From Lophium mytilinum (taxonomy: Eukaryota), in the NCBI GenBank assembly GCA_010093605.1, contig MU004183.1:496001-560000 (forward strand): 64,000 bases of DNA. The letters are read 5' to 3'. Positions 46,525-64,000 of the stretch are shown here, piece after piece. The first letter of the stretch is position 1. The number at the start of each line of letters is the position of its first letter. The position numbers and the translations under genes were made by a program. Below the pieces are notes generated by a model. The model searched no databases and was not told where the DNA came from. It saw nothing but the letters and a program-made list of their open reading frames with translations.

Positions 46525-49500
46525 ATGGCCCCGCCAGCGACAAAGAGGAGGAAGCTCAGCCATAGCGACAGCAGTGAGGACGAAGACACCGCAATGTCTG
46601 GCAGCAACAATTTTGCTGGGAACGGGTCCGGAGAAAGCGAGCCGTCCAGCGGGGATGAAGACCTCATGGAAGAACACGGCCATTACGGAGACGAAGACGC
46701 CTTAGGAAGCGAAGGCGAGGAAGGCGATGCCATTGAGGAAGATATACCGGTAGCGATCAAGAAAAGGAAGACCACCGGTCCAGAAAGTGTAGCAAAACTA
46801 CGGAAGGGAATCGACGACATACCACAGGACGGAGTGTACACCGCTGAAATATACAAGTCAAATCTCTTCAAGCTACAAGTAGATGAACTGCTGAAGCAAG
46901 TCAAACCGAGGTATGGAAAGAAGGAGGTCACAAACGCAATGCACGCGTTGAAGAGCATTATCGAGCAAATACCTAATCGCGAACCTCAGCTGGTATGATT
47001 ATGTACATAATTTCCTCCTATACCATACACTAACAGTTCGTAGGTTCACGACGCGGAAAAATCTCTTCTCAAATCAAGCAAAATTTCCACGCCATTCCCG
47101 TATCCACGACCACCAAAAGACGCAAAATACAAGCTAGAATATGAGAAGCCGGCAGGCATAAACGTGACGGGAAGCTATGTCCTGGAAATAGCAGCTAAGC
47201 ATGGCGATGAGCTTTCTATTGATCTTGTTGTTACTATGCCCAGTGTAAGCTGTTCCCTCGTCTATGAGATGAGGCCCTACCTAACACCTCGCAGTCTCTT
47301 TTTCAAGAAAAAGACTTCCTCAACTATCGATATTTCTATAAACGGGCCTACTACCTAGCCTGTATAGCTGCCGGTATTAAAGATTCTAAGGACCACAAAC
47401 TTGAAATACGTTTCGAAAGCTTGAATGGCAATTCTTTACAGCCAATTTTGGTTGTGCGACCAAGCAAAGGTATGGAAGCATCCAGCCTGTCATGACACAA
47501 TCTAATTAGCTTCAATAGATGCCGGCGGCGACCTTTCGGCCTCGAACTTTTGCATCAACATTCTTCTTACGCCTGGAGAGAAGGTTTTCTCGTCTGAGAA
47601 GCTTCTGCCGGAGAAGAACTGTGTACGGCCAAAGGGCTCTAACGACGAATCGTCTTCCAGATTGGTCCCAACGCCTTTCTACAATGCAACACTACAGGCG
47701 GATTGCTCCATCACAGCATACTTGAAAGTGCTCCATGCCGCATCGAAGCAGAGTGATGCGTACAAGGACGCTTGCATACTCGGGAGAGTATGGTTAAGGC
47801 AGCGCGGATTCCATGGCCACGTCCGCAAAGGGGGATTCGGCAACTTCGAATGGGCCGCCATTATGGCAATTCTTCTTCGGAGTAGCAGCGGTACCGGTGC
47901 ACCAATTCTCTCGGCCGGATACAGCAGCTACCAGCTGTTCAAAGCCACCATTCAATTTCTCGCGACTAGAGACTTGACCAAGATCCCGTTTGCGTTCGAG
48001 GCTGCCAGCATACCGTTACCAAAGACTGAAGGAATGCCTTATTTCTTTGACGGTGAACGGAGTGTCAATCTGTTGTTCAAAATGACAGCCTGGTCTTACA
48101 AAATGCTACGGAAGGAAGCAAAGAATACATTGAAATCCCTGGCAGACTCTACGTTCGACCAATTTGATTCCACCTTCATTCTCAAGGTTGAGTCCCCAAT
48201 GTACAGATACGATAGCATGCTCGAGCTTCCTCTCACCGAATTTGAGCAAGACACCAACCACGAAGACATCCGCCAAACTCTACCTCAGATTTGCAAAAAG
48301 TTGTATACTACTCTAACACGTGGTCTCGGCAATAGAATAACTTCTCTGTCGATAAGCCTTCCCGAGGAGACTGGTTGGCAAGTCAGCTCGTCTAGGCCCT
48401 TTGAAGATAGACAAGGCAGAATATTAATCGGACTCGAGACAGACCCGGCCAATTCTACAAGATTGGTGGATCATGGCCCTGCAGCTGAAAATAAAAAAGA
48501 AGCAGCCTCGTTTCGTCGCTTCTGGGGCGAGAAGTCTGAGCTCCGTCGTTTCAAAGATGGGAGCATCCTCGAGAGTCTAGTCTGGTCACAGAAAGACAGC
48601 AGTGGGACGATTGTGGAACAGATCATCAGGCACCTCGTGCAGCGGCATTTCAGCGCCAAGGTTGCAGATTCGGCAAAGTTTTTAGGTGACTCTTTCAACC
48701 GCCTGATCACTGCTGGCGGTTTGAGCGGGCAGTCTGGGACAATTCCTTTCCTGTCACTCATGACTGCTTTCTCTACTCTTGAAAAGGACATTCGAGGGTT
48801 AAAGAATCTTCCTCTCCAGATTCGGCACATTCTCTCCGCGGATTCCCAACTACGCTACTCTTCAATTGACCCACCCTTCAACGCTTCAGCGCAAATGAAA
48901 ATTCCCGCATCCATTGTCGTACAGTTTGAGGGATCTGGACGATGGCCTGACGACCTACTTGCTATTCAACGGACCAAGATTGCCTTCCTTCTCAAGCTCG
49001 CGGAACTTCTTTCCGGAGAAAACGCACAATACATCACCCGTGTCGGTCTTGAAAACACTTCCCAACCATCTCGAAATCAATCCTTCCTCGACATCATCAC
49101 TCCGTCGGGGGCAGCATTCCGTCTCCGCATTCATCACGACCGTGAAGCCTTCTTACTGGACCACCAACTAAAAGACAAACTATTGGACGGCCCAACTCGT
49201 GAAGCAACAGCCCACGCTCTAGCAGCTTACAAGCGCGACTTCCTCCGTATTCCAGCACACACACAAGCTATGCAAACCCTCTGTACTCGTTTCACTGCGC
49301 TCTCGCCCGCAATCCGGCTTACAAGGAAATGGTTTGCCTCCCACCTACTAACGTCCCATTTCGCTCCTGAGTTTATCGAACTCCTCGTCGCACGCTCCTT
49401 CCTCCAGCCTGCCCCTTGGACAACGCCATCATGCGCTACCACCGGCTTCCTACGCACGCTGTTCTGGCTCAGCCGGTGGGACTGGACTCACAGCCCACTA

Positions 49501-50271
49501 ATCGTCGATCTCGCCAACGCGGAAAGCGGCGCCGACAGCATGAAAGCCGACGACGTAGCGGCCATCACGACGCGCTTCGAAGCCTGGCGCCGCATCGATC
49601 GCGACCTGAACCGGGTCGTGCTCTTCGCAGCCTCGAATCTAGATCCAGACGGCACCACATGGACGGACCGAGCGAGGCCGGCCAAAGTCGTTGCGAGACG
49701 CATGACTGTGTTAGCTCAAGCTGCTGTAAGCGTTCTCAAGGACACCGAGCTCGGACTCGTTGCAGGCACGACTGGAGTCGTTGACTTCCAACCTGAAACT
49801 CTCTTCGCGGGCCCGTTGAGCGATTACAGTTTTGTGCTCCGTATCGCGCGGCCGTTTACCCGCTTTGGGCGCCCGAAGTCGGATGCGAAGGCCAGCAACG
49901 CCATGTTCAAGAACTTGCAGTTGCAGATGCAGTCGGAGGACAGGGATGTGGAGACGGTTGGGTATGCGCCTGTCAGCTTGTTCGTTGAGGAGCTGAGAGA
50001 AGTCTATGGGAACACGATTATCTGGTTTTACGACGAGGAGGGTGGGGATGTGGTGGCTGGGCTCTGGAACCCGATGGTGACGGGGAAGAGGGGGTGGAAG
50101 GTCAGGTTGGGGACGTCGACTGTGCCTGTTGTTGGCAATTCTAAGCCATCAAAAGGGAATGATGATGGAGGAGTGGATGTGATGATCAATAAGGGTGGGA
50201 TTCTGAACGAGATCACCAGATTGGGTGGGGATTTGATTGAGAAGACAGAGGTGTTTGATATCCAAAAGTGA
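46525..50271 (+). CDS. UTP22: U3 snoRNA-associated protein 22 (Nrap family); introns ~46993-47043, 47245-47294, 47470-47518
   Basis: KRRKL NLS and acidic N-terminus; SNLFKLQVDELL, KDFLNYRYFYKRAYYLA, PTPFYN, WLRQRGF..GGFGNFEW, FRRFWGEKSELRRFKDGSILES, FEGSGRWPDD, GFLRTL..LSRWDW. Confidence 0.95.
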
Positions 50272-50829
50272 TGGGCTGGTTTGCATAGCGGTAAGCGTTG
50301 GATGATTTATTTCAGATCAGTGCTTGTACGCCAATCACTCGGGAAGTTTACGAACAAAACTCAAGAAAAGTTTGAAGCAATTCATATGATCCCAGAACCT
50401 TCTTCTTATTTCAAATATCCGAAACATGAGTCAGTATCGGTCTCGAACATGCCTAATGTCCAGTCTCTTTTGGTATATCATCGCCGTGAGGCTTCAGATC
50501 AGAGCTTTGCAAAAAGCCGACATACTGCTTTAGCTTTCAAGATGAAAACATCAAGGCCACCGGTTGTAATTCCTTTGATATCTCTAAACCCTTCCTTCGT
50601 GCTTGGACGGAGCGTGCATTCACACGTAATCACCTCTACATCACATTGTTGGATTATAACAATCACCTACAGAAATCAATGCTAGTAGCAAGCAAGACCG
50701 CTCATGTTTAGATGCCACTTACGGGCTGCATTTAAACAGCTACAAAGATCGGTTGTTGCAAGATGAAATTGAACGAACCTTATCGAGTGTATGTAGCAGA
50801 GTAACATGTATAAATATTTTTTTAGGTGT

Positions 50830-51490
50830 AAGTTGGTGATGGTGTGACTTGGTCCATGCCTTTCACGTGCTGTGATGGGTCCGAAGAGTATAAAAACTTG
50901 GTTCGCGCTTTGCAAATTTCCTTTTCCGTGGAATCTGGTCTTAGGGTTGGTGGTGGAAGGGAAACTTGGTGGATTGATCAAAAGATCTGAATATTGGGTT
51001 ACATGGGGGGTGGTCGCGCCGGTGGCCAATCAAAAGGCGCGAAGCTCGAACTATATGGGTTTGGTTCCTCGAGTGTTGAGCGCCCGGATATGCTCTATCT
51101 GCGCGTAGCTGGTGATGCTACCTATCATTCGCCCCCGCCTCCTCTGATAAACATCGGCGGCTGCTTCTTGATATACACATACCCTCATTGACGATATCAG
51201 TTCCCATAGTCTGAAAGTATTGGCCAGCACCACCGAACGGTGATGAAGAAGCCTCGAAGACGCTCTTCCTCCGCACGCAGACACCATTCGGGGGTGTCAT
51301 CGTACTGTTTTTGATCTCCCACCGCAAGAACCTAGACCCTTAAACACAATGGTATTGATCACCGCGCCGCCTCCTCCCACTCAACAAGAACATGCAAGCT
51401 TGGGATCGGGGTTTTCCGTTACACAGCAACCCCAAGCCATCATTCGCAAATACATGAACTTTCAGGATTCCCATCCCCTTCCTCCATGCT
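50830..51490. repeat. Weak back-to-back arrays of the ~50-bp GATCAAAA/TTTTGATC unit
   Basis: GGATTGATCAAAA (GATC at 50976), CCAATCAAAA (51028), then inverse TTTTTGATCTCCCACC (51313) and TATTGATCACCGC (51357). Confidence 0.45.
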
Positions 51491-52049
51491 TATTCCTGGT
51501 CCGCGAGCGACGAGATTATATACCCATGTCCGGTCTACCTCACGTGGGCCACACGGGGTTCTAGTTTCGACCTCGTGACTAGAATAGTAGTACTGTATTC
51601 GGTCATAGATGGCGTCAAGTACCCTGCGTTCAAGGTAGGCCGTAGCATCTGATATTAGGCGGAAGATGAGCTAAACTACAGAAATGCACTCAAGTTTGCT
51701 ACCGTGATTGCCTACTGTAGATAGGCGTCATAATCTAACGCCTGGGAGGGGAGGGAGAGTATTACTGCTTGAAGTCTTTCGCCATTGATGTATTTCTTGA
51801 ATGTGACACGAAAAGCACACTCACCGGTGCTCGATTTTCCAGGAGCAGTCTACTAGAATCAGTTGATCCGATAGAGAACTGGACGAGCCCGACCAAATGC
51901 ATGCTTAGTTAACGAGATCACCTATTCTCCATCTCTACAATACCCTCCGCCTCTTCCGAGCGATAGCAATAATCATCTTTCGGTAAGAGCACCAACCACA
52001 TTTCCCCCGGATATCCGTCACTGAAAATTCACAACGGTGAGCTCCACCA

Positions 52050-52480
52050 GAGCCCAGATCTACCCCCTCCTCCCAGCCATGTGCCTTTTTTTGTTGCGAT
52101 TTTATCCTCCAGCTCTTCTCCTCCCACCCCCAGTCATAAGCTCAGAGACTTAAGCTTTTTGATCCACCACGCCGGCCTTCCAGCCATGGCATGACAATAC
52201 CCAGCCATTTTGATCCACCAATCCTCCCACGCTCCCCGCCTGGCCTTCACAAATAGCCGTGCTTTGATCCTCCACACCTTCCGACCATAGTTCTTTAGTC
52301 TGGTCTTTTTTGCTCCTCCACCATACCACCAGCCCATACTCCGTACTCATCCTCAAGTTTTGATCCCCCACACAACGCCGCAGTCATCAAGTCTTGCGCG
52401 ACCAGCTTTCGATCCACCACTCCACCCATGACAAGCTTTTTCGACGCCAGTTGTTGAACCCCACCCCCTCCAAACCTCCC
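52050..52480. repeat. Degenerate ~50-bp periodic array, unit TTTTGATCCACCAC-[C-rich]-CCAT
   Basis: Cores at 52161, 52212, 52266, 52312, 52362, 52411, 52456 (spacing 45-54), weaker ones at 52057 and 52103. Confidence 0.8.
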
Positions 52481-53494
52481 CTGATCTCCAGAAGCCAGGT
52501 CCAGAGCGCGGAGGTCTCGGTTCTTATAGTCGAGAAAAACGGAGAAAAACCAGAGAGCAGGTGAGACTGACGTGGCAAGGAGACGAAGCATGACCAGGGC
52601 AGTGACGTATGCATGTTGTGTGAAACCTACAGGTGATGCCTCGGTACGTAAACATGGAAGGGATCTACCTGACTATCGCCTTATCACCCCTTTCCCATAT
52701 CTTTAAAGATCCTACATGACTTGCCTGTCGCGATTGTGAACCCGAGAACGTGGAGAGTGTAGAAATACAGGCTGACGAATAACGCGAGGAGCAGAATACC
52801 GGAGAGGGCGAGGATGCTGAGGGTGGAGCTGCAGAAGAAAGGGCGGTGGGGGAAGGGGAGGTAAAGGTGATGGGTAGAGGAGATGGACCGGGATGGTCGA
52901 TGGTATGGCAAAGAGTCTGAGCCTTGAGACGCAGAAGTGCCCGCGGATTCTTTCAAAGAGGCTGTGGAAGTGTTGAATCGATGACGAGCAGATAGATATC
53001 AAGTCCGAAGAAGAAAACGTAAAGATACTTGTCCCAACGTCACAACCGCAATTACTCTCACCGCGATGATCACAGCACTCATCAGAGATCCCGCTACCTA
53101 CAAGCACGATAACGAGTCCCAGTCCAGCATTCTGAGTGAATTAGGCGCCCCGCAGCAAGAGAACACAAAGCTGAACCCGCAAACCGCAGGCATGCCATGC
53201 TAGCGCAGCCCCTCTACTATTCCTCGTCGCACGACCCCCAAAAGCCCGATTCGTATCTCTTGCGGCAGGTTAGTGATCATTGAACGATGCGAAAGAGCAT
53301 AGCTGGACAAGGGTGTTTTACTTACGCATCATGGGTGCGATGGGTGCATGTGACTGTCGAAGACGAGAATTCGGAGGTGCTGATTTGATAGAAAGCGGTG
53401 CAAAGGCAGAGTTGTAGGCCCTCCTGGTAAGGGTCTGGGACGGGCCACAGGGGAGGCAGGAGGTGTGGATGCGGGGTCATTGAATGACATTGAA

Positions 53495-53530
53495 GTTGGA
53501 TTTAGACTTAGGGTTGGATTTAGAGTTAGG
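53495..53530. repeat. 18-bp direct repeat x2 in a hexamer-periodic tract
   Basis: GTTGGATTTAGACTTAGG / GTTGGATTTAGAGTTAGG. Confidence 0.8.
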
Positions 53531-56500
53531 TGGACGTTGGAGTTAGGAGGCGAAGTTGGAGTGGAAGTTGAAATGGAGGTGGTGTCCGGGTAGGAGCTAT
53601 GAAATGGTGTTTATTCTTTTTGCTTTGGAAATGCTATTTTGCAGAGATCGTTTGAAGCCTTCTTCTGCATGATTTCTCAGGAGGGCTTGTGAATCTTGGG
53701 AGTCTATCAGTGGCCTCCTCCGCGAGTTTGAGGGAGCGGTCATTTGGCTTCCTCTGCCGAGCACTGCTGCTTGCTCAAGAACACATTACCATGCCAGCTT
53801 GCGATGTGGTGTAACGGCACTCAGATTCACGTCCCAAGCCATGCAAGAGGAACTCTTGGCCTTTCCGCCTCCGTGGCCGCAGAGCACGCGAGGACCCCCG
53901 GCCATATCATGTGTCAACTGACGCCTCCAAGATTCCTCGGAACGTCGCTGTACAACTTCGTTTCCTGCTCGCGGGCCAGGGAAGCCTAGACTCGAGGACG
54001 CTTAGACAGTGCCAAGGAGAGTTGGTTGCACGGGAAAGTGATGCATATGTTAGCCAAGAACAGGTGAATATGTTGTGTTACGCCCAAATCCTTTCCGCGG
54101 GCTGTCATAATAAGAAGCGGGGAGCAGATGGATGATGTGTCTGTTCTGGATTGGTGGTGCGGAAGGCAATATCATGAACCAGACTACTGCTTGAAACGAG
54201 GTATGCTGGGCGTCAGGTAGATAAGAATGTGTTACCACAAAACGTGCAGCTTTCTACTCTTGGCTATAGGAAACGAGGTCTTCTATCTGGAGACTTAGAC
54301 ATTGGTAGACCACAAGAGATATTGAGGGGATGCCTCGCAGAAGGGAACAGATATCGCAAATCGAGGCCGAAGAGGAGAAAACTAGCTGGAAAGCCAAAAT
54401 GATGAGCGGGGAAATATACTTTGCCAATGTTCGTTACGAAAGTCGGTGTGAAGGGCCGTTTGGTGGTCAGATAAACACGTATCCAATCCGAAAGTGATAG
54501 ACCTTCCCCGCCATGTCCAGAACATCAGTTGCCGGACTATTCTCGCCGGGATATTTCTCGATCACTGCTGCTGTCACGAAACCGATGTGTCTCCTTGTTG
54601 AGAGGGGGTGTCTAGTATGAATCGCAGATGCTTGTTGCATTCAAGTTCAGGGCATTTGTTTATCGTGAACCCCGCCAACTAGAGTACACAATAGAAAAGC
54701 TGCATGCTCCGCTGACCGCAGACTCTTGGAAGCGCTTGGCATGCAGCAATGCGTTCAATTCGTGATCGATAACAGGGTAAAGAAGTCTGAGAATCCGTGC
54801 TCAGTTCGTACGGGCTGACACGAAGGAGACACGGCAGCAGCTACGACGAGTAATGGGCGCATGAAACGAAGAAAGGCCGTTCGCAGGTGTGCGCGTGATG
54901 GCTAGACGTCCGCTGATCACGGGGCAGAGGCAGAAAAGAGGCGGATGGGCCCAGGAGCCAAGGCGCGGAGTTCATCTTGGCGCTGGAGCGGAGAGCGTAG
55001 ATTCGACGGGGGGACTAGCAGAGGGGAGACCCTGGCGAGGCAAGGCGACGTGCATGTGCAGGATGGCGTTGAGGCTGTGCTGCTAGCTGTCTCGATGCCG
55101 ATGGATCGAGGGATCGATGGATCGATGGTGGAACGGCGTCTCTGGCACATGCTTTGCAGCAGGGCAGATGGGTTCGCAGGTCGCTCGGTGATGGCGGAGT
55201 GGTCTGACAAGCTTCTCGCGTACTCATGAAAATTGCAGTCAAGCGTTACGTACCTGCTACCTCGATCCGAAATCCGGCAACTGGAGGGCGAATCCGGCGG
55301 CACAATTGGACAGATGGCCCGGGGCGCGTGCTTTTGTATTCAGCCAAAATGATGATTTTCGAATTTTCCCCGGGCGCAAGCATGATGAGATGTGACGGGG
55401 GGGCATATCTGACATGGGCTGTCTGCATGCGAATCTGCAGACGGCAAGCTTGCGGACCACGACGGCGCAAACGCCGTAAAACAGAACGTGTTTGCGCCGC
55501 CAGTTGCTCGCTGCGTGCTCGTTGGGCAGCAATATCGGGTTCGGCGCCATAGAGAGGGAAGGGATAGGGTTAGCCTTTTTGCGCCTGGCCCTACTCCTGG
55601 CCTTGCACCTGGCCGACACACCAGTCCTCTCACGCACCCTTGGAGGATCGTATGCATAGGAGGCCCTATTTGGCAAAGCAGAAGGGCGGGGAGAAAAACA
55701 TGGTGGTGGTGCGAGGCAGGATCAGACGAGTGCTTGATAAGGGGACGTTGGACGTTGGACGACGTCGAGGACATGCCGCTACGCCGCGCATCCTTCGCCC
55801 ACCTCCCTCCGCAAGGGGTTCCAGATGTCGCAGAAGTTCCCGTCTCGACTTCCACCGGGCTCCACGCCACAGGGAAGAGGGCTGCTGCACGGAGGGCGGA
55901 CTGGCGGGCGGGAGAGATAGCGCAGCCCCGGAGCCCAGCAACCAACAAGATGACGGCGCTCGGGAAAGGCCAGTCGATCCCCGTCGTGCCGCGCTGGTGG
56001 AATTAGCCCAAAGGAGGAGGCAACCTGGCCATCTTCCAGGCGTGCCTCTCAGGATCCCAGCCGGCTATAATCTCATCTCGGACGTCACTCCAGCGGCGTT
56101 AACGGATCCGCGCCGTTGCACAGTGCACACGGGCACAGAAAGCAAAGAGAGGGCTGTGATAGCGGCTGCGGGCCTATCAGGGGCGCACGTTGTACCCCTA
56201 TCGCTGGGGCGTGGTGTTGAGGCAGCTTGCGGTGAGGGTGTCTGCATATGGGGGCTCGGGATAGTGCGCCCACATGGCTCATGGGCTGGGCGGATGCAGT
56301 TTGGACGGTTCCGAGGCGGTGGATGTGGATCTGCCAAGGAGCGGCGAGCGACTCTAGCGTGTGTTTCGCGTGGCCTTTGCAGCTGGAGCGCTGACTCTCA
56401 AACCCCGTCACAGCCCTGGGCGTGGTGTTGAGCCCAAGATGCGACTGAGCTTTGCCTGGCTACCTTGCTGCATCGCTCCCGAGCGCCTGCTGACGACGGC

Positions 56501-57320
56501 CGTGGCCATGTGCTTAAGACGGTGCCCCCCCAGCGTGAAGGCGAGCCCGGTTTCTTCGATTCACCAGTCTCACCCCGTCTTCCACGTTGCTGCAGCGGCG
56601 AATTGTTTGTTCTAGTGCATTCCAAACTGGGAAGCTTTGTTGTCATCCATCCACCCCTCTGTGACTCCAACTCACCGGCCTTACCAAGCCCAGCCTGCTC
56701 ACCCACCTCGCTCATCCGCGGACAGCCTTTATCTCGACGTCGTCCGGCCTGCTTCCGCTGTCTCCCGTTTGCTCCCTCCTCGAATCACATCCAGCCACGA
56801 GCACGTGCCGCCATAGAGTTGCGCCGGCTGCTGCCCCGTCTGTCATCGCCCGTCAGCTAGCCGTCGAAGCTTACCTCGATTCGGGCCTATCAGCACTGCG
56901 TCTCGTCGTCGTGCATAACCCAGAAGTAGGCAGCTGCGAGGACGCACTCGTCGCGCAAGATAAGCCTGACCGTTACACCGTCTCGATCAGATACATAACC
57001 GCCCCACCGTCACCTGCTGTGTTTGAAACACCTGCCGTACAACTACACCAGCAACGTCCGTGTACAGAAGCGATCCCGACGTAATATCGCACCACAATTA
57101 CGACACTACCCAATCAATATTGCTACATTGGGATTCACTGAGCCAGCTTGTCCCCTACTCAAAACCAACTCTCATCAACAACCCTCAAGCTTAATCTTCT
57201 TCTCAACCACGACACCTCCACGCATCACACCATCATCACCCAAAACCTCAATACCGACCTCACCTACCCACCCCTCGCCCAAGACGTCTCCATCAAACTC
57301 CCACCTCACGCACCGCAAAC

Positions 57321-57893
57321 ATGTGCGTCGCCGAACTTAATGTCTCCCTTCTCCCCTGCCGCCACCGCTGGTATCATCTCGTGCGCCCCTGCACTCCCTC
57401 TGCCAACCTCTCCAATTGTGGCGACAAGCTCGCCCTCTCCGGCTGGGAGATCAAATGCGACTTCTGTCCCTACTGCTCCGGCTGGAACTTGACCAACTCC
57501 GAGTATCGCCTGGTTGGCAATGACCGCACGCCCTCCATCGGCGGCCTCTCCCGCTCCCCGAGTCTCTCCCTCTCATCAGCCAGGCGCGAATCTCGCCGCG
57601 GCAGTCTTGCCCGCACCGACAGTAGCACTAGTATCACTATGATGGCCGCCCAGGAGAAGAACCGCGCACTAAATGCCCGAGTTGATGCCTATCTACGCGT
57701 CACCCCCGAACACATGCCGGAGTCGAAGACCGGTGAAGACGAAGCCGACGGCGTTGGCGGCCCACAGAGCCTGAGCGACAGCGACAAGAGCGAGGGCCAG
57801 GGATCGTCTGCGCATAGCGAGACGAAGGGCTCTGGACTCTTCGGCAAGGGCTGGAAGAAGTCGAAGCGGTTCAGCAAGACACTATTCAAGTGA
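57321..57893 (+). CDS. Small hypothetical protein with N-terminal Cys/His cluster
   Basis: MC..PCRHRW..C..C..CDFCPYC followed by Ser/Arg-rich low-complexity tail; C-ending codon bias; AAACATG start after a CA-rich leader. Confidence 0.8.
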   Translation: MCVAELNVSLLPCRHRWYHLVRPCTPSANLSNCGDKLALSGWEIKCDFCPYCSGWNLTNSEYRLVGNDRTPSIGGLSRSPSLSLSSARRESRRGSLARTDSSTSITMMAAQEKNRALNARVDAYLRVTPEHMPESKTGEDEADGVGGPQSLSDSDKSEGQGSSAHSETKGSGLFGKGWKKSKRFSKTLFK

Positions 57894-58829
57894 TACGCTT
57901 TACAAGCAGAGAGTGCTGTCCTAACGATTGTGCTCTCTCACTCTACTCTCGGTTCATTCTTTCTCTCCTGTCTTTTGCCAGATCTGTTCTCCTCGGATTT
58001 CTTTCTTAGCGGATATACCCAGACTTGTTTTCATCTCAGCGCGCGGCATTGGAAGCGTATTGCTCTGCGGGGCGCTACGTCGAGGAAAAACAAACGAATG
58101 AATCATACTCTCGGCCGGGTTTTTCTCTTCCTCAAAAAGATTTCATGAAAAGCAAGGGCGACCTTCAATTCTGCTGGAGGTATTTGTGTTTTTCGGCGTT
58201 TTTCTGGAAAAATCGGCATGGGAAATGGGAATTGGTCCTGCTCTAGGATTCGGATATCGGGACCCCCGGGATGGGCTGGGTAAGCGCGATCGACCTCCTC
58301 CGGGACAGCCGGTTACGAGTACGTTACGAAGCGGACTCGGCTCGCTTTAGTATTTGTGTGGTTCCTGTCGCTACGAGAATCTGGGAATGGCTCTTGGTTT
58401 CCGGTGGCTATGTAGCGAGTGAATGGAACTCGATCTCACCTCTCATTCTGATCCGTATGCTATGACTGCAGTGCCGTTCTATCGATACAATCTTTCAACA
58501 CCTACAGGTAGAAAACCGAGAGGCTTTTCATCAAACCCATCCAGATTGTCTTCTCGCGCATCCATTCAGCTCACCCGTCTCTGCGTCCTATGTAAGCAGT
58601 TCGCGTATAATCACCGCCACCGCGGCCTCCCCTACCCTCCCTACCCCTCTCACCCTCATCACACGGCTTTCACGTGCCTGTCTCCACTCACCGCCTCCGC
58701 CTCGCACCCTGTCCACCTACCTCATCACGTGCCCTCCCTTCGTCCTCCCTTTCTTCCTGTATAAAACCTCTTCCTCCCAACCCCAAACTCGTCTCCAGAA
58801 AGACAGGACGGGGGGTCTTGAGCAGGCGG

Positions 58830-59260
58830 GGATAAATATTTACCTACTCGACTACCCATGGGCGAGTCGGGAGATCAAATTGCCCCAACCATTTCGTCGA
58901 TGGCTGGGTGGAGTGGTGGATCAAATCAAACAGCGGCTCAAGCTATGGTGGGGTGGGTGGTGGGTTGAGTAAACTCGAAGAGGAAACAAAGCCTATGGGT
59001 GTGGGTGTTGGGAGAGCAGAAATCCAGAGCTGGAGTGTGGGATGGCTGGAGGGGGTGGGGGAGCAAAACAAGTGAAGACCAGGAACGAATATCATGGCGG
59101 GGGAAGTGGGTGATCAAAAACGCGACGTCGACGACGACGATGGCTGGAAAACGTGGGGGAATTGTTTGGAATTGGTTCTGCTCGTCATGGGAAGCGGTAG
59201 ATGGTGGATACTTGAGGGTCTCGACAATGGATGTGAACAGCATCATTAGGTGGATATGTG
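58830..59260. repeat. Degenerate ~47-bp periodic array, unit ATGG-[G-rich]-GA(T/G)CAAAA (reverse complement of the 52-kb array unit)
   Basis: Cores at 58873, 58919, 58967, 59014, 59061, 59112, 59159, 59207, each preceded by ATGG 15-22 nt upstream. Confidence 0.8.
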
Positions 59261-60570
59261 GAAGCTACCCAAGCGCAAATGCTTTCTCCATTAGGCACAT
59301 ATAGGCCATTTTTTGACCACTGTTCGTTATCTTCCTTGTTTTCTAGTTGATGGTCAATGAACAGGACTCGTATATAAGTGGCTTCAAGAAGGTATATGAA
59401 ATGTCCACGTGATCAGGACGCTAGTGCATGCACGTCCCATCTCAACCTGCTGTCAGGCCTGAGTCGTCAGGCCGTCTCTTCTCCTTACACCGTCATGCAT
59501 CACTTCCTCGAATCGCTCTGATTTACTACCACTATGTTGCAATTGCTAGCTACTTGTCGTGGAACAAGGAGCTGTATGCTGTGTACCTAGCTTTCTGCTT
59601 TTCACTGTCAATCATTCCAACTAGCCAGTGCTCAACGTCCGACCCTTACGCTACGTGTACGACTCACAAGCAAGCTACTATGCAAGGCAATGGACAAGCC
59701 GTGCCGTTTAACTCACTTCCTTCCATTCCCATCCGCGAGTGTTCTTCACTTCTCTTCGAAATCCGCTACCAACGCGCGCGTGGGACACGGCATGATAGTT
59801 TCCATGGCCACGACAACGCGCTCAACAACCAACATCAAACGACAACGCTGACGCCAATACCACCGTGAATAGAAGGTCATTTTCTCAAGATATAGAGCCG
59901 GTCGTCGGTACAGTAGGTTAGTTGTGAAGCGTGGGAGGGTGAAGGTGAAAGTTCAGATTAAGGCGCCAGTTCCTTTTACGAATCAACATGAGTAGAAGGT
60001 CTTTGTAGGTCTCGCACAGACCTTGGGCTGCAGCTTATGTAGTTCGCTATTTTCTCTGAGTGATCGAGGCCCTTGGAGTCGAAAAACGACTTTGTTTCTT
60101 GTCAAAGGGATGCTTTGTCGCCATGTTTTCAATGTCTCCACCAACCTCTTAATGATCCCAACATGTAAAGCTAGGGGTAGAGCGTCACCTCTACATACGC
60201 TACAAGTTCTTAACTACGCAAGATTTTACTTCGTTACGATGCCAACGCTGCACAACGCATCCTCTTCTCACTTTGATTTGTGCACGGACAACGCTCATTG
60301 GCTCGCGTTCCTATTGTCATTCTTTATTCGCATTGTCAACTTGACAATAGCATCAAAGCGCACTGTTAAGCCGCGCCTCTCATATATAACCACTCTTCTA
60401 CGTGTCTCTAGAAGACTCTTCACACACGCATCTTTTGACTCAGACTTACTTGCATCTTCAAGCAAATACAAGTCTTTTTGAATCTCCCAAACAGCTTCCT
60501 GTTCTCCATTACCACAGACAGCACCCTGTTTACCACCATCACAAATATTTCCCTTCGCGGAACCTCCAAG

Positions 60571-61656
60571 ATGTCGCAAACTTCACTCAAGACCGCCGCG
60601 ATCGCCACGGCTCTCGCGTTCGCCACCGTCACCAGCGCACACTACTCGCTAGTTGACGACTACACCAAAGAGAAGTTCTTCCCTGGATTCGATTTCTTCA
60701 CTGGACCAGACCCTACATCGGGATTCGTGCAGTACCAGACCCTCGAGCAATCCATCGCCAACCAGTATATCGGCTATCTCAACAATTCGATATACATCGG
60801 CGCGGATTACACTAACAAAACTCCACAAGGTCGGCCATCTGTGCGAGTCGAAGGCAAGAAAGCCTACAACCAAGGACTCCTGGTGGCCGACGTCCTTCAC
60901 ATGCCGGATAGCACGTGTGGCTCGTGGCCAGCACTCTGGATGTTTGCAGACCCGTGGCCAAGCATGGGAGAGATTGACATCGTCGAGGGAGTATCTGACC
61001 AGCGCAGCAATATAATGACGCTGCACACTAGCGCTGGGTGCGCCGTTGATAATGCATCCGCACCTCTGAACGGCGGCGGCAACGTCAACAACAACGAAGC
61101 CAGCTTCCTCGGTCACATGTTGACGAAGAACTGCGACGTCGGAGCTCCCGGTCAAGACAAGAACGTTGGATGTGGCATCGAAGCTCCGTCCTCCATCGCT
61201 CCACCGGCCTCCCAGCGCCGCGATACTAACGCAACCGCACACTCTGGCTCGCTTCCTTCCTATGGAACTGATTTCAATCAAGCCGGTGGCGGTGTCTATG
61301 CCATGCAATGGACTGATAAGTTCATCGCCGTTTACTTCTTCTCCCATGCCGCCAACGAGACGATTCCAAAGGATCTCCTTTCCGGCAATCCCGATCCCTC
61401 AGGCTGGGGCACTCCACTCGCGCGCTTCGGTGGTGACGGATGCGACTTCACCAAACGGTTCAAGGATCTGAAGATTGTCATCAATCTCACGTTTTGCGGC
61501 CAGTGGGCAGGCGATATCTGGACAACTGGCGGATGCGCAGCGAAGACCAAGTCTGCGACATGCGAAGCATACGTCGAGAACAACCCAGATGCTTTCTCCG
61601 AAGCTTACTGGGAGATTGCTAGCCTAAAGTGGTTCGAAGACAAGGATGGACAATAG
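60571..61656 (+). CDS. Secreted GH16 endo-1,3(4)-beta-glucanase (Lam16A-like)
   Basis: Signal peptide; FDFFTGPDPTSGFVQY, GRPSVR, HMP..CGSWPALW, catalytic GEIDIVEG, FNQAGGGVYAM, NLTFCGQWAG, AFSEAYW. Confidence 0.95.
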   Translation: MSQTSLKTAAIATALAFATVTSAHYSLVDDYTKEKFFPGFDFFTGPDPTSGFVQYQTLEQSIANQYIGYLNNSIYIGADYTNKTPQGRPSVRVEGKKAYNQGLLVADVLHMPDSTCGSWPALWMFADPWPSMGEIDIVEGVSDQRSNIMTLHTSAGCAVDNASAPLNGGGNVNNNEASFLGHMLTKNCDVGAPGQDKNVGCGIEAPSSIAPPASQRRDTNATAHSGSLPSYGTDFNQAGGGVYAMQWTDKFIAVYFFSHAANETIPKDLLSGNPDPSGWGTPLARFGGDGCDFTKRFKDLKIVINLTFCGQWAGDIWTTGGCAAKTKSATCEAYVENNPDAFSEAYWEIASLKWFEDKDGQ

Positions 61657-64000
61657 AGCCGGCCGTTGAGCCGCCTTTGTCTTCCTTGTACGAGACTACT
61701 AACTGACTTTCCTTTGTTCCTTTGAGAGCATCTTCCTTGTATCTCTTTCCATTGCAGTATTTCGGCAACGTTGATGCTTGATCTTCCTGTCTTCTGTTCT
61801 TGCATAGCTCGTCATTCTTGGATATCCTCGGCGTTTTCTAGCATCGCCTCAAATTGCGACTTCAGCATTCCGTTTCTTTTCTTGAGATAGCCATCTGGGT
61901 GTTCACTTTGCATCCATGATATCTCCCTCCTTCTTCAATTCTACCCAAGCCTGTAAGACGAAATAAAATACTCTTTTCTCATGAATCCCGTGTACTTTGA
62001 GTGCTTGACTAACTGTGATATGATGACTAAGATAGCCTACTCTCGGATCCGAAAACATGACTCTGGCAAACTCATTATTATGCTTCCCATGACTCCAGAA
62101 TCCTCCCAAACAACAAGCAGCCCCCGTTTCATGTCCATATCACACTAGAAGCAAGCTCTCACACAAATATAATTCCCTTGTGCCCTTATTGACCACCTCA
62201 ACACCACCACCGCGGCCACCACGTACTCTCCAACCACCACCCGTCTCGTCTTACCCACTTCTTACCCCCACCGGCCTCACCACAACACCCCTTCCGCCGA
62301 CCCCGCCTCAAAAGTCGCGACCCTCACGCCAAATTACTCACCATCACGCCCCTCGCACCAAGCCACCGCACTCCCATTTCCCCTCAGACGCCGCTACATC
62401 CCGTCCGCATGCCTTTCCCCCCCTCCCCTCCCCCCCTCCTCCCCTTCTCCGCGGAACCCACCCAAGCTCTCCCATTGCCCATCTAGACCCCACTCTCCAG
62501 ACCTCACACATCCAGGGACAAGGTTCCCACGCCCCCGTGGCGTATCCCGGCACCACCTACCACGGCATCGCCGAAGCGCCTCCCCATCGCACCTAACCCG
62601 CCGCCGCCACGCCCTGAATCGGCCACGCCTCGCCATCCCCCCATAAGGCAATGATGCGCGCTAGATCTAGAACAGGCCTGTCGCGTGGTGGGGACGCTTG
62701 GATGGGGATGTTAGTTTCTTTGTTCCCACGCGGGATGGCGTTCGAGACGCTCGCTCCGCGGAGGGGGGAGGGAGGGAGGGTCTGGAACGGGATTCGAAGA
62801 GAGGCGGAGATCGGTGCCTGGCGATCGTCGTGATATCGATGTGTATAAAAAGAACGGGTAGGGTTGTAGTAGAGGGAGTCTAGTGGAAGTCCCAGCCTCG
62901 CCGTTCTCGCTCCCTGATTATCTTTATTTTGGTCGCATACCCTTTCCTCTGTGCAGCTTTCTTGCTGCTACAAACCGAGACATTCCCCCTCCCAGATCGT
63001 GGAGCCTGGTCGGTATTGCTACATGCTCCCCACCCTTTCCCTGAGCATGCTCTTCTTCCACCTCTTCTTCCCCAGCGTGTTTTCCCGGCACCGCGCTCAG
63101 CACCCGCTGCCCCTCCCGCAGTCGGCTTGCCCAACCGCCCCGGCACCGACACCGCCGTCCCCTCCACCTTCCCTCAGAGATCTGCTCCTATAGCCGTCCT
63201 CTACGCCAATTCCGCCCCCAGTTTCGCCCCCATCCCGTCTTGTCTACACTCGCCCTACCCGCTCTTCGGCCCTAACGTCGTACTCTTCGAACCCTTTTGA
63301 CCACGATGGGGGAAAGAGGCATTACACACTACACCGTATCCCCACCTCGTCGTGTCCCAGCGAGTCCTATCGAGCCAACTCAAGGCTGTGCTACTGGCCA
63401 CGGGATTCGATACCTTTCACCACCACAACTACCAACCCAGAATGTATCCTGATACGCGAACGCCACTCAGGGGGTTGACAGATCGGATCTAGAGTCAGAA
63501 GAGTAGATGACGATGTAAGGAGAGTGTAAGAAGGCATATAGGACGGAAGCACGAGACAAGAGGGAGGCGTTTTGCGCGCTCACCTTTGTGACAAGAAGAG
63601 CGATAGTGAGTCACATCAATGGATGATTGTTGAGACTAGTTGCTAATTTGATACTCTCTAGGGATGGTCAATGAGATGAGGGACAAGAGATGAGGGACGA
63701 GAGAAGGGGTATGAGAGATGGAAGGAAGCGGCGCCATGACGGTAGCAGGTAGAAAGCTATAGAGAAGAGAACGAACAAACGAATGACACGAGAAACAAAC
63801 CCGAAATCTAACCTTTTCTATTGTCAGCATGTTCATGATTTGTGAAGAACCTCAGTGGCAGAAGGCTGCTGTTTGCTTTGGTCAGCTTTGATATCAGAGG
63901 CCATGGAGCTAGAATGCTGTGGCATCTATACCTCTTTTATTTCGCAAGAAGACCCTTCACCACTTCACAAACCCACCGTTATCACTACCAAACCGCACCC

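Follow-up and report, generated by a model that had tools for sequence, protein, structure and literature searches.

What kind of element recurs eight times between positions 58830 and 59260 of the 64,000-nucleotide stretch of Lophium mytilinum DNA analysed here (the window), and what might it do? A first-pass annotation had described eight units there, on the strand opposite to a related array near 52 kb and with a tight period of about 47 bp. We located all eight on the + strand, at 58858, 58900, 58945, 58995, 59042, 59094, 59140 and 59187. Their end motifs are spaced 46, 48, 47, 47, 51, 48 and 48 bp apart; six of these values agree with the annotated core spacings, and the sixth had been given as 47. 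A two-part motif common to both arrays had also been proposed, on the argument that its recurrence speaks against chance. This is supported by cross-recovery: a two-part matrix trained solely on the 52-kb array (− strand) recovers 8 matches of at least 8 bits in 58830-59260, compared with a mean of 1.1 and a maximum of 5 in 2000 dinucleotide shuffles and with at most 3 in 286 other windows.

The tight period did not hold as the constrained quantity. In a first catalogue of the family, the end-to-end period varied from 30 to 62 nt, and a fixed 47-bp period was therefore rejected. The conserved blocks in this catalogue measured 12–41 nt, whereas the linkers between them measured 22–24 nt in 92 of 117 cases. 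What is constrained across the family is thus the linker, of 23±1 nt and unique sequence. The period of the array at 58830-59260 is nearly constant because a fixed linker is combined with blocks that happen to be 19–26 nt long. A minisatellite or satellite, in which the whole unit would diverge evenly, was rejected as well: the blocks are kept, the linkers are near random in sequence but kept in length, and Tandem Repeats Finder reports neither this array nor the 52-kb one.

The layout of the locus can be read from 5′ to 3′ on the + strand. A distal E-box CACGTG (58671..58676) and a proximal one (58726..58731) precede a TATA box TATAAAA (58760..58766), the proximal one by 34 bp. The first G-rich block, which lacks the ATGG start, occupies 58797..58834, and by the family pattern transcription would start near 58797. 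It is followed by linker 1 (23 nt, 58835..58857) and then, in 58858..59211, by eight G-rich blocks of the ATGG...GATC type (19–26 nt) and seven unique linkers of 23, 22, 24, 24, 29, 24 and 23 nt, where the 29 may be read as 24 and the last two junctions are degenerate. A candidate for the 3′-terminal motif of the family (TGATG-N-TGA-N-CATC-like) lies at 59227..59247 (+), with low confidence for this array. A possible decayed convergent partner unit, which our parser did not call, lies at 59250..59411 (−; CACGTG 59406, TATATA 59371).

The parser called four units in the window, with TATA boxes at 50889 (+), 51522 (−), 52528 (−) and 58760 (+). The 52-kb array (52050..52574, −) belongs to the same family, with an E-box-like element at 52569, TATAAG at 52528 and eight linkers of 22–24 nt. 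A third member at 51250..51546 (−; CACGTG 51541, TATATA 51522, four linkers of 22–25 nt, weak score of 24) is convergent with a fourth at 50864..51130 (+; CACGTG 50864, TATAAAA 50889, two 23-nt linkers and the terminal motif). Among four window proteins scanned against Pfam, one is encoded by a Nrap/Utp22 gene at 47662-50271. The gene flanking our array on its upstream side (57321..57893, +) encodes a conserved Dothideomycete protein of 190 aa with a Cys/His-rich N-terminus, which is 93% identical to a Mytilinidion resinicola protein and belongs to no Pfam family. Downstream, a 392-aa ORF at 60478-61656 without a Pfam match looks like a secreted glucanase, which we take to resemble GH16.

Are the arrays transcribed? 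The contigs of run X1 skip three introns of Utp22 and leave the neighbouring glucanase-like ORF uncovered, and this run therefore represents RNA. One contig (56808..59391, +) spans the 190-aa gene, runs 1.5 kb beyond its stop codon and includes the whole array; it joins the array to the upstream gene and does not show a separate array transcript. The array could also be read as part of a long 3′ UTR. A spliced contig on the − strand (51659-55370, intron 53259-53325) runs through the 52-kb array. It has no ATG-started frame over 99 codons, which makes it a candidate long non-coding RNA, and it includes short tandem repeats of period 6, 12 and 18 at 53494-53577. The unit at 50864 has no contig cover in this run, an absence that carries no evidential weight. 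Since these two contigs cover the arrays, the arrays are present in RNA on some transcript; the firing of their own promoters is not readable from contigs.

The array at 58830-59260 is one member of a genome-wide non-coding gene family in this wood-dwelling Mytilinidiales fungus. Five pattern searches of the 43.4-Mb assembly returned 8, 18, 74, 30 and 39 matches, against 0, 0, 10, 0 and 5 for the reversed-pattern controls. In 417 kb of own-genome DNA, read in stretches chosen around pattern matches, a parser anchored on the E-box and TATA box found 106 candidate units with 590 linkers; 87 units score 20 or more, and none of 150 random starts reaches the threshold. The overlap of a junction search (about 44 clusters) with a promoter search (about 22, 10 of them shared) suggests a family of ~100 clusters. 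All six loci chosen by promoter pattern alone (6/9 such new loci fetched) carry arrays. Among eight new loci selected by junction, two (C1:810 kb and C15:1209 kb) are without a promoter-anchored unit in the stretch read, and the one at C1:950 kb has only a weak one. Very long arrays with 31–59 called linkers, in which three or four block types are repeated in order and every linker is different, occur at C17:741700-743900, C5:1073100-1076000, C15:1144800-1147200, C10:1028400-1030000 and C9:542000-544200.

Units of the family share a layout of helically phased CACGTG, a TATA box and then G-rich blocks (AUGG...GAUC) alternating with linkers that start with AAAA. The first block ends 59–77 nt after the TATA box, and the start sites are predicted. 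TGATG follows the last block in 49 of 106 tails, compared with 13 in shuffles, and the EM log-likelihood of this 3′-terminal motif is 280 versus 36 and 44; a stem-loop reading of the motif failed two covariation tests. CACGTG is found within 80 bp upstream of 49 of the 71 TATA boxes followed by a block end and of 6 of 160 other TATA boxes, a ratio that is too high, since this pattern had itself served to find some of the loci. The E-box-to-TATA spacing, which was not selected for, clusters at 24–25, 34–36 and 44–46 bp (Rayleigh Z 33 at 10 bp); a real arrangement of activator and TBP would be expected to show such phasing. Both the TATA box and the phased upstream activator site of an RNA polymerase II TATA gene are therefore in place.

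The promoter bears on an idea implied by the first-pass annotation, namely that the array is regulatory DNA for flanking genes. As DNA, the arrays would offer phased sites for transcription or chromatin factors, or quadruplexes, and a fixed distance between two short motifs would suit a DNA-bound complex. The quadruplex potential that had been noted stands in a weak form: four GG runs occur in 57% of blocks versus 38% in shuffles, and two-tier folds are allowed. Three-tier quadruplexes are not supported: none of 207 blocks has four GGG runs, GGGG occurs less often than expected (109 versus 191), and the array at 58830-59260 contains no canonical pattern. The TFIIIC B-box has the consensus GWTCRANNC, with an invariant last C. 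B-boxes of the ETC/COC type were rejected, with the C at the required place in 30 of 117 cases and one match in the array at 58830-59260. Moreover, arrays lie in tandem, convergent and divergent clusters (14, 21 and 13 neighbouring pairs, thus 21/48 convergent) rather than before genes. Because a phased CACGTG-TATA promoter of its own precedes the array, and the two always share a strand, a role as RNA is likelier, and we regard a DNA role as highly improbable.

We analyzed the length and sequence of the linker across the family. When no length was encoded in the scan, 61, 156 and 62 junctions had linkers of 22, 23 and 24 nt, compared with 1–14 for every other length from 5 to 45 nt. A re-parse of the six promoter-selected loci with a flat prior placed 38 of 66 linkers at 22–24 nt, where about 8 were expected, although it is not fully independent, as the units were first called with a peaked prior. 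Among parser calls, the coefficient of variation in length is 0.035 for linkers and 0.33 for blocks, which range from 9 to 49 nt, fall into several types and are conserved in sequence. All 552 linkers of 22–24 nt are unique, and their information lies only in the four leading bases (AAAA) and in a weak terminal YC. Where block types recur, in five long arrays, the identity between linkers in homologous context is 34–38%, versus 29–31% for unrelated pairs; a test that is near saturation detected no faster divergence than in the flanks. Since the distance between two motifs stays at 23±1 nt over hundreds of unique linkers, something measures the linker.

The linkers are also biased in composition. 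In 325 confident linkers, stop triplets number 139 versus 210 expected, on the transcribed strand only; the linker reverse complements contain 187 versus 206 and the flanks 1347 versus 1361. Ranked by depletion among the 64 triplets, TGA comes first, TAG second and TAA fourth. With stops excluded, the linker trinucleotide profile correlates with sense coding DNA at r = 0.63, compared with 0.44 for antisense and 0.25±0.08 for flank samples. An early result had suggested captured fragments of own genes as linkers, but codon periodicity is absent from the linkers (-0.06±0.02, versus +0.07 in the fungus's own genes), which does not support intact fragments of this kind. Block cores are also stop-poor. 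The triplet bias would suit guides whose composition reflects pairing with coding RNA, or the avoidance of a word for cleavage or termination.

Could the units be translated from the block AUGs, as short peptides or as upstream ORFs? Every block starts with AUGG, stop triplets are under-represented in linkers and blocks alike, and 27 of 68 arrays have one open frame versus 19.6 expected from a lenient shuffle. However, AUG-to-AUG periods are spread evenly over the three frames (126/119/116), stops are equal in all frames with every anchor tried, none of 87 units has an unusually long frame, and there is no purine bias at -3. Protein or peptide coding was rejected on these grounds. Functionless decayed repeats, in turn, could not keep linker length and promoter phasing while the linker sequence saturates. 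We give very little credence to either translation or decay.

A search for linker targets gave negative results. Two linkers searched genome-wide yielded nothing above chance, and 325 linkers matched neither 104 kb of retrotransposon DNA nor 277 kb of open frames in excess, after removal of exact 'CDS' matches in the open-frame comparison that were the arrays themselves. One 18/20 match to a linker of the array at 58830-59260 lies at C17:138534-138553, on the open-frame strand; ~0.14 such matches are expected per search. Nearly all of 150 scored reverse-transcriptase matches genome-wide carry TAA/TAG stops, the pattern of repeat-induced point mutation, and the array linkers show no TA excess of this kind.

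What, then, measures the linker? The reading we favour, with confidence that falls somewhat short of an even chance, is that the units are short RNA polymerase II genes whose transcripts serve as polycistronic precursors of ~23-nt Argonaute-type small RNAs. It builds on the observed promoter architecture, strand-fixed blocks, fixed linker length, unique linkers, lack of a reading frame and presence in RNA. Proteins would recognise the block end (G-rich...GAUC/AAAA) and the start of the next block (YC/AUGG), and two cuts would release the linker as a small RNA. By an alternative route, an RdRP could copy the linker into a 24-nt antisense RNA beginning with U. The released product would have to fit an Argonaute, and under this proposal linker length would be kept for that reason while the sequence drifts. 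An Argonaute-sized product may well be the simplest measurer, though we hold this with some doubt. In the accessible text of two papers, Magnaporthe small RNAs of 19–24 nt with a 23-nt peak and a 5′ U provide the size class (PMC9549407), and Neurospora ERI-1 offers, for fungi, an earlier case of G-rich RNA elements that feed Dicer-independent small RNAs (PMC5131781).

The genome contains two Dicer-like loci, four RdRP loci and about ten Piwi loci, and some Argonaute genes lie close to arrays. On C1, three tandem divergent Argonautes end 3.6 kb from an array match, and a single small gene separates them from it. In the middle Argonaute the first two catalytic motifs are kept, and its PIWI part is only 44% identical to the best foreign match. 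The region C1:826500-844500 holds the three intact-looking Argonautes, a small stress-protein-like gene and then four units in convergent/divergent pairs. On C15, the distance between the QDE-2 orthologue and a 17-linker array is 3.7 kb, and a small membrane-protein-like ORF sits in this gap; the array, within C15:437500-444600, alternates long and short blocks. In a simulation over eight Argonaute loci, the probability of two within 4 kb is 0.013-0.018 and that of three within 10 kb 0.003-0.005, with thresholds chosen after seeing the data and a weak unit as the third locus. For five of the eight loci, the array matches include none within 300 kb.

We count the 22–24-nt linker peak, the unique linkers, the Argonaute proximity and the strand-specific loss of stop triplets in favour of small RNAs. 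Against them count the lack of targets, of a hairpin precursor, of faster-than-flank linker change and of codon periodicity, as well as the different gene between Argonaute and array in both near cases and the post hoc thresholds. Block interiors are, in addition, conserved as distinct types, more than simple cut marks need. GGAG (152 versus 64), TGGA (82 versus 27) and GAGT (67 versus 26) are enriched in blocks, and in long arrays 3–4 block types recur in order, their cores being 74–79% identical in pairs that had been chosen for at least 65%.

These conserved interiors are better accounted for by a spaced protein scaffold than by an Argonaute product. Here the transcripts would act uncut as scaffold or decoy, the G-rich blocks would bind an RNA-binding protein, perhaps an RRM or zinc-knuckle protein of a GGAG/UGG type, and adjacent complexes would be spaced by the 23-nt linker as a mere ruler. 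That conserved information sits in the blocks, that linkers drift about like flanks and match no target, and that an RNA contig spans the whole array all agree with such a role. On the other hand, protein sites joined by a single-stranded spacer would seldom require its length to be exact to ±1 nt, and the strand-specific stop-triplet loss and the Argonaute proximity would be left unexplained. The accessible text on Neurospora describes ERI-1 as binding G-rich RNA via its RRM (PMC5131781). Overall, we consider the scaffold, together with its binder, possible but rather doubtful.

Alternatively, the blocks and not the linkers could be the mature RNAs (AUGG...GAUC, 10–45 nt), in which case the nuclease that frees them would gauge the 23-nt linker. 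The types of block sequence are conserved, and a unit often opens its first block with one recurrent word, CATGG/CAGGG, close to where transcription is expected to start. A 23-nt Fusarium small RNA shares its final seven letters with many blocks (PMC11130915, accessible part), though it is represented by 2 reads inside an ORF and the shared letters may be coincidence. Yet block length varies tenfold more than linker length, and no complement was found for the one specific block searched, nor in 32 tRNA 3′ ends. This makes mature block RNAs improbable. The tRNA comparison also speaks to an antisense-to-tRNA or primer-binding-site decoy, which was rejected: 177 blocks against 32 tails gave 6.87 versus 6.71±0.08 matches and a duplex energy of -25.07 versus -25.04 kcal/mol.

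Returning to the precursors of ~23-nt small RNAs, we compared the family with known systems. A hairpin precursor of the milRNA/miRNA kind was rejected, with z = -0.95 for the array and a block-linker-block energy of -14.2 versus -14.4 in linker swaps. Rfam gave 2 weak matches in 50000-64000 (E 1.5 and 4.5), both outside the arrays, so that no known structured ncRNA was recognised there. Fungal milRNA loci resemble the family in being intergenic non-coding genes that give 20–26-nt RNAs, according to the accessible parts of three papers (PMC9757828, PMC4139310, PMC9113603). They are, however, defined by fold-back, whereas the arrays here fold no better than shuffles. The loci of C. elegans 21U-RNAs encode many unique RNAs of fixed length behind a shared promoter motif, much as in the family, but are monocistronic. 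Bacterial CsrB/RsmZ sponges likewise carry repeated GGA words in one non-coding RNA, with GGA in hairpin loops, but have no fixed unique spacer. Neurospora disiRNA loci and ERI-1, in the accessible text of two accounts, share Dicer-independent ~22-nt 5′-U RNAs, a G-rich element and convergent transcription (PMC5131781, PMC9549407). In the same text these loci are ordinary genes with overlapping antisense transcription, and no punctuated array with fixed spacers was found in it.

In layout, the family resembles CRISPR and TIGR arrays. Apart from a one-line description in a TIGR paper (PMC12045711), the CRISPR features used here are general background. In the CRISPR arrays of bacteria and archaea, a promoter leads into conserved elements that take turns with unique spacers, nearly constant in length. 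This arrangement is also seen in our family, whose linkers are all unique (552/552) with a peak at 22–24 nt. Unlike CRISPR, the arrays are eukaryotic and TATA-driven, their 'repeats' are of several types and 9–49 nt rather than near-identical and of constant length, they form about a hundred dispersed clusters that appear to grow by tandem duplication, and no spacer target was found. TIGR arrays, as far as the accessible text describes them, have two alternating repeats of 8–12 nt that begin with UG and end with (C/U)CA, 9-nt spacers, 36-nt products, a truncated first repeat, a terminal element and an adjacent Nop-domain Tas gene (PMC12045711). The family shares the variable spacers of fixed length, the truncated first repeat and the terminal element, and its blocks start with (A)UG(G) and end with (U/G)CA, which is a resemblance only. 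In contrast to TIGR, its spacers are 23 nt and its blocks long and variable, without two alternating repeats. The genome has three Nop-domain genes, the number expected for what are presumably Nop56, Nop58 and Prp31, and none of them lies at an array match as a Tas-like partner would. The layout is thus like that of a CRISPR or TIGR array, yet fails the defining tests of both.

We also looked for the family elsewhere. BLAST-type searches with two arrays matched only the arrays themselves, with one candidate scored each, and such searches are therefore blind to 19-nt matches. A pattern search of metagenomes gave 74 matches, 12 of them with a 22–24-nt gap versus about 10 expected, and no convincing array among the matches listed; viral contigs gave 0 matches. 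One fungal-looking metagenome contig (L053, about 1900-2150) combines a pair of G-rich blocks and a 22-nt linker with CACGTG close by; it lacks TATAAAA, and is possibly a distant family member or a chance match. A bacterial intergenic 51-bp tandem repeat (L033, L067, L080) matches the pattern with identical 23-nt gaps and is a chance look-alike. In the literature searched, with most subscription papers beyond its reach, we found no account of this family and no description of repeat-spacer arrays in fungi.

In prokaryotes, unique spacers of fixed length in repeat-spacer arrays are the mark of programmable RNA-guided systems. The function of the family may be the supply of small guide RNAs. Conceivably, though we think it rather less than probable, it constitutes a eukaryotic repeat-spacer guide system: hundreds of polymerase II genes with roughly a thousand unique 23-nt guides, stored between processing blocks, would serve lineage-expanded, fast-evolving Argonautes, and the spacers would be shaped by coding RNA, own, viral or mobile, as their pairing partner. 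If the linkers are Argonaute guides, they would represent a new small-RNA route that needs neither hairpins nor long double strands, as well as a natural cassette for multiplexing. Should they be rulers, the arrays would still form a large, selected non-coding gene family with unusually strict geometry.
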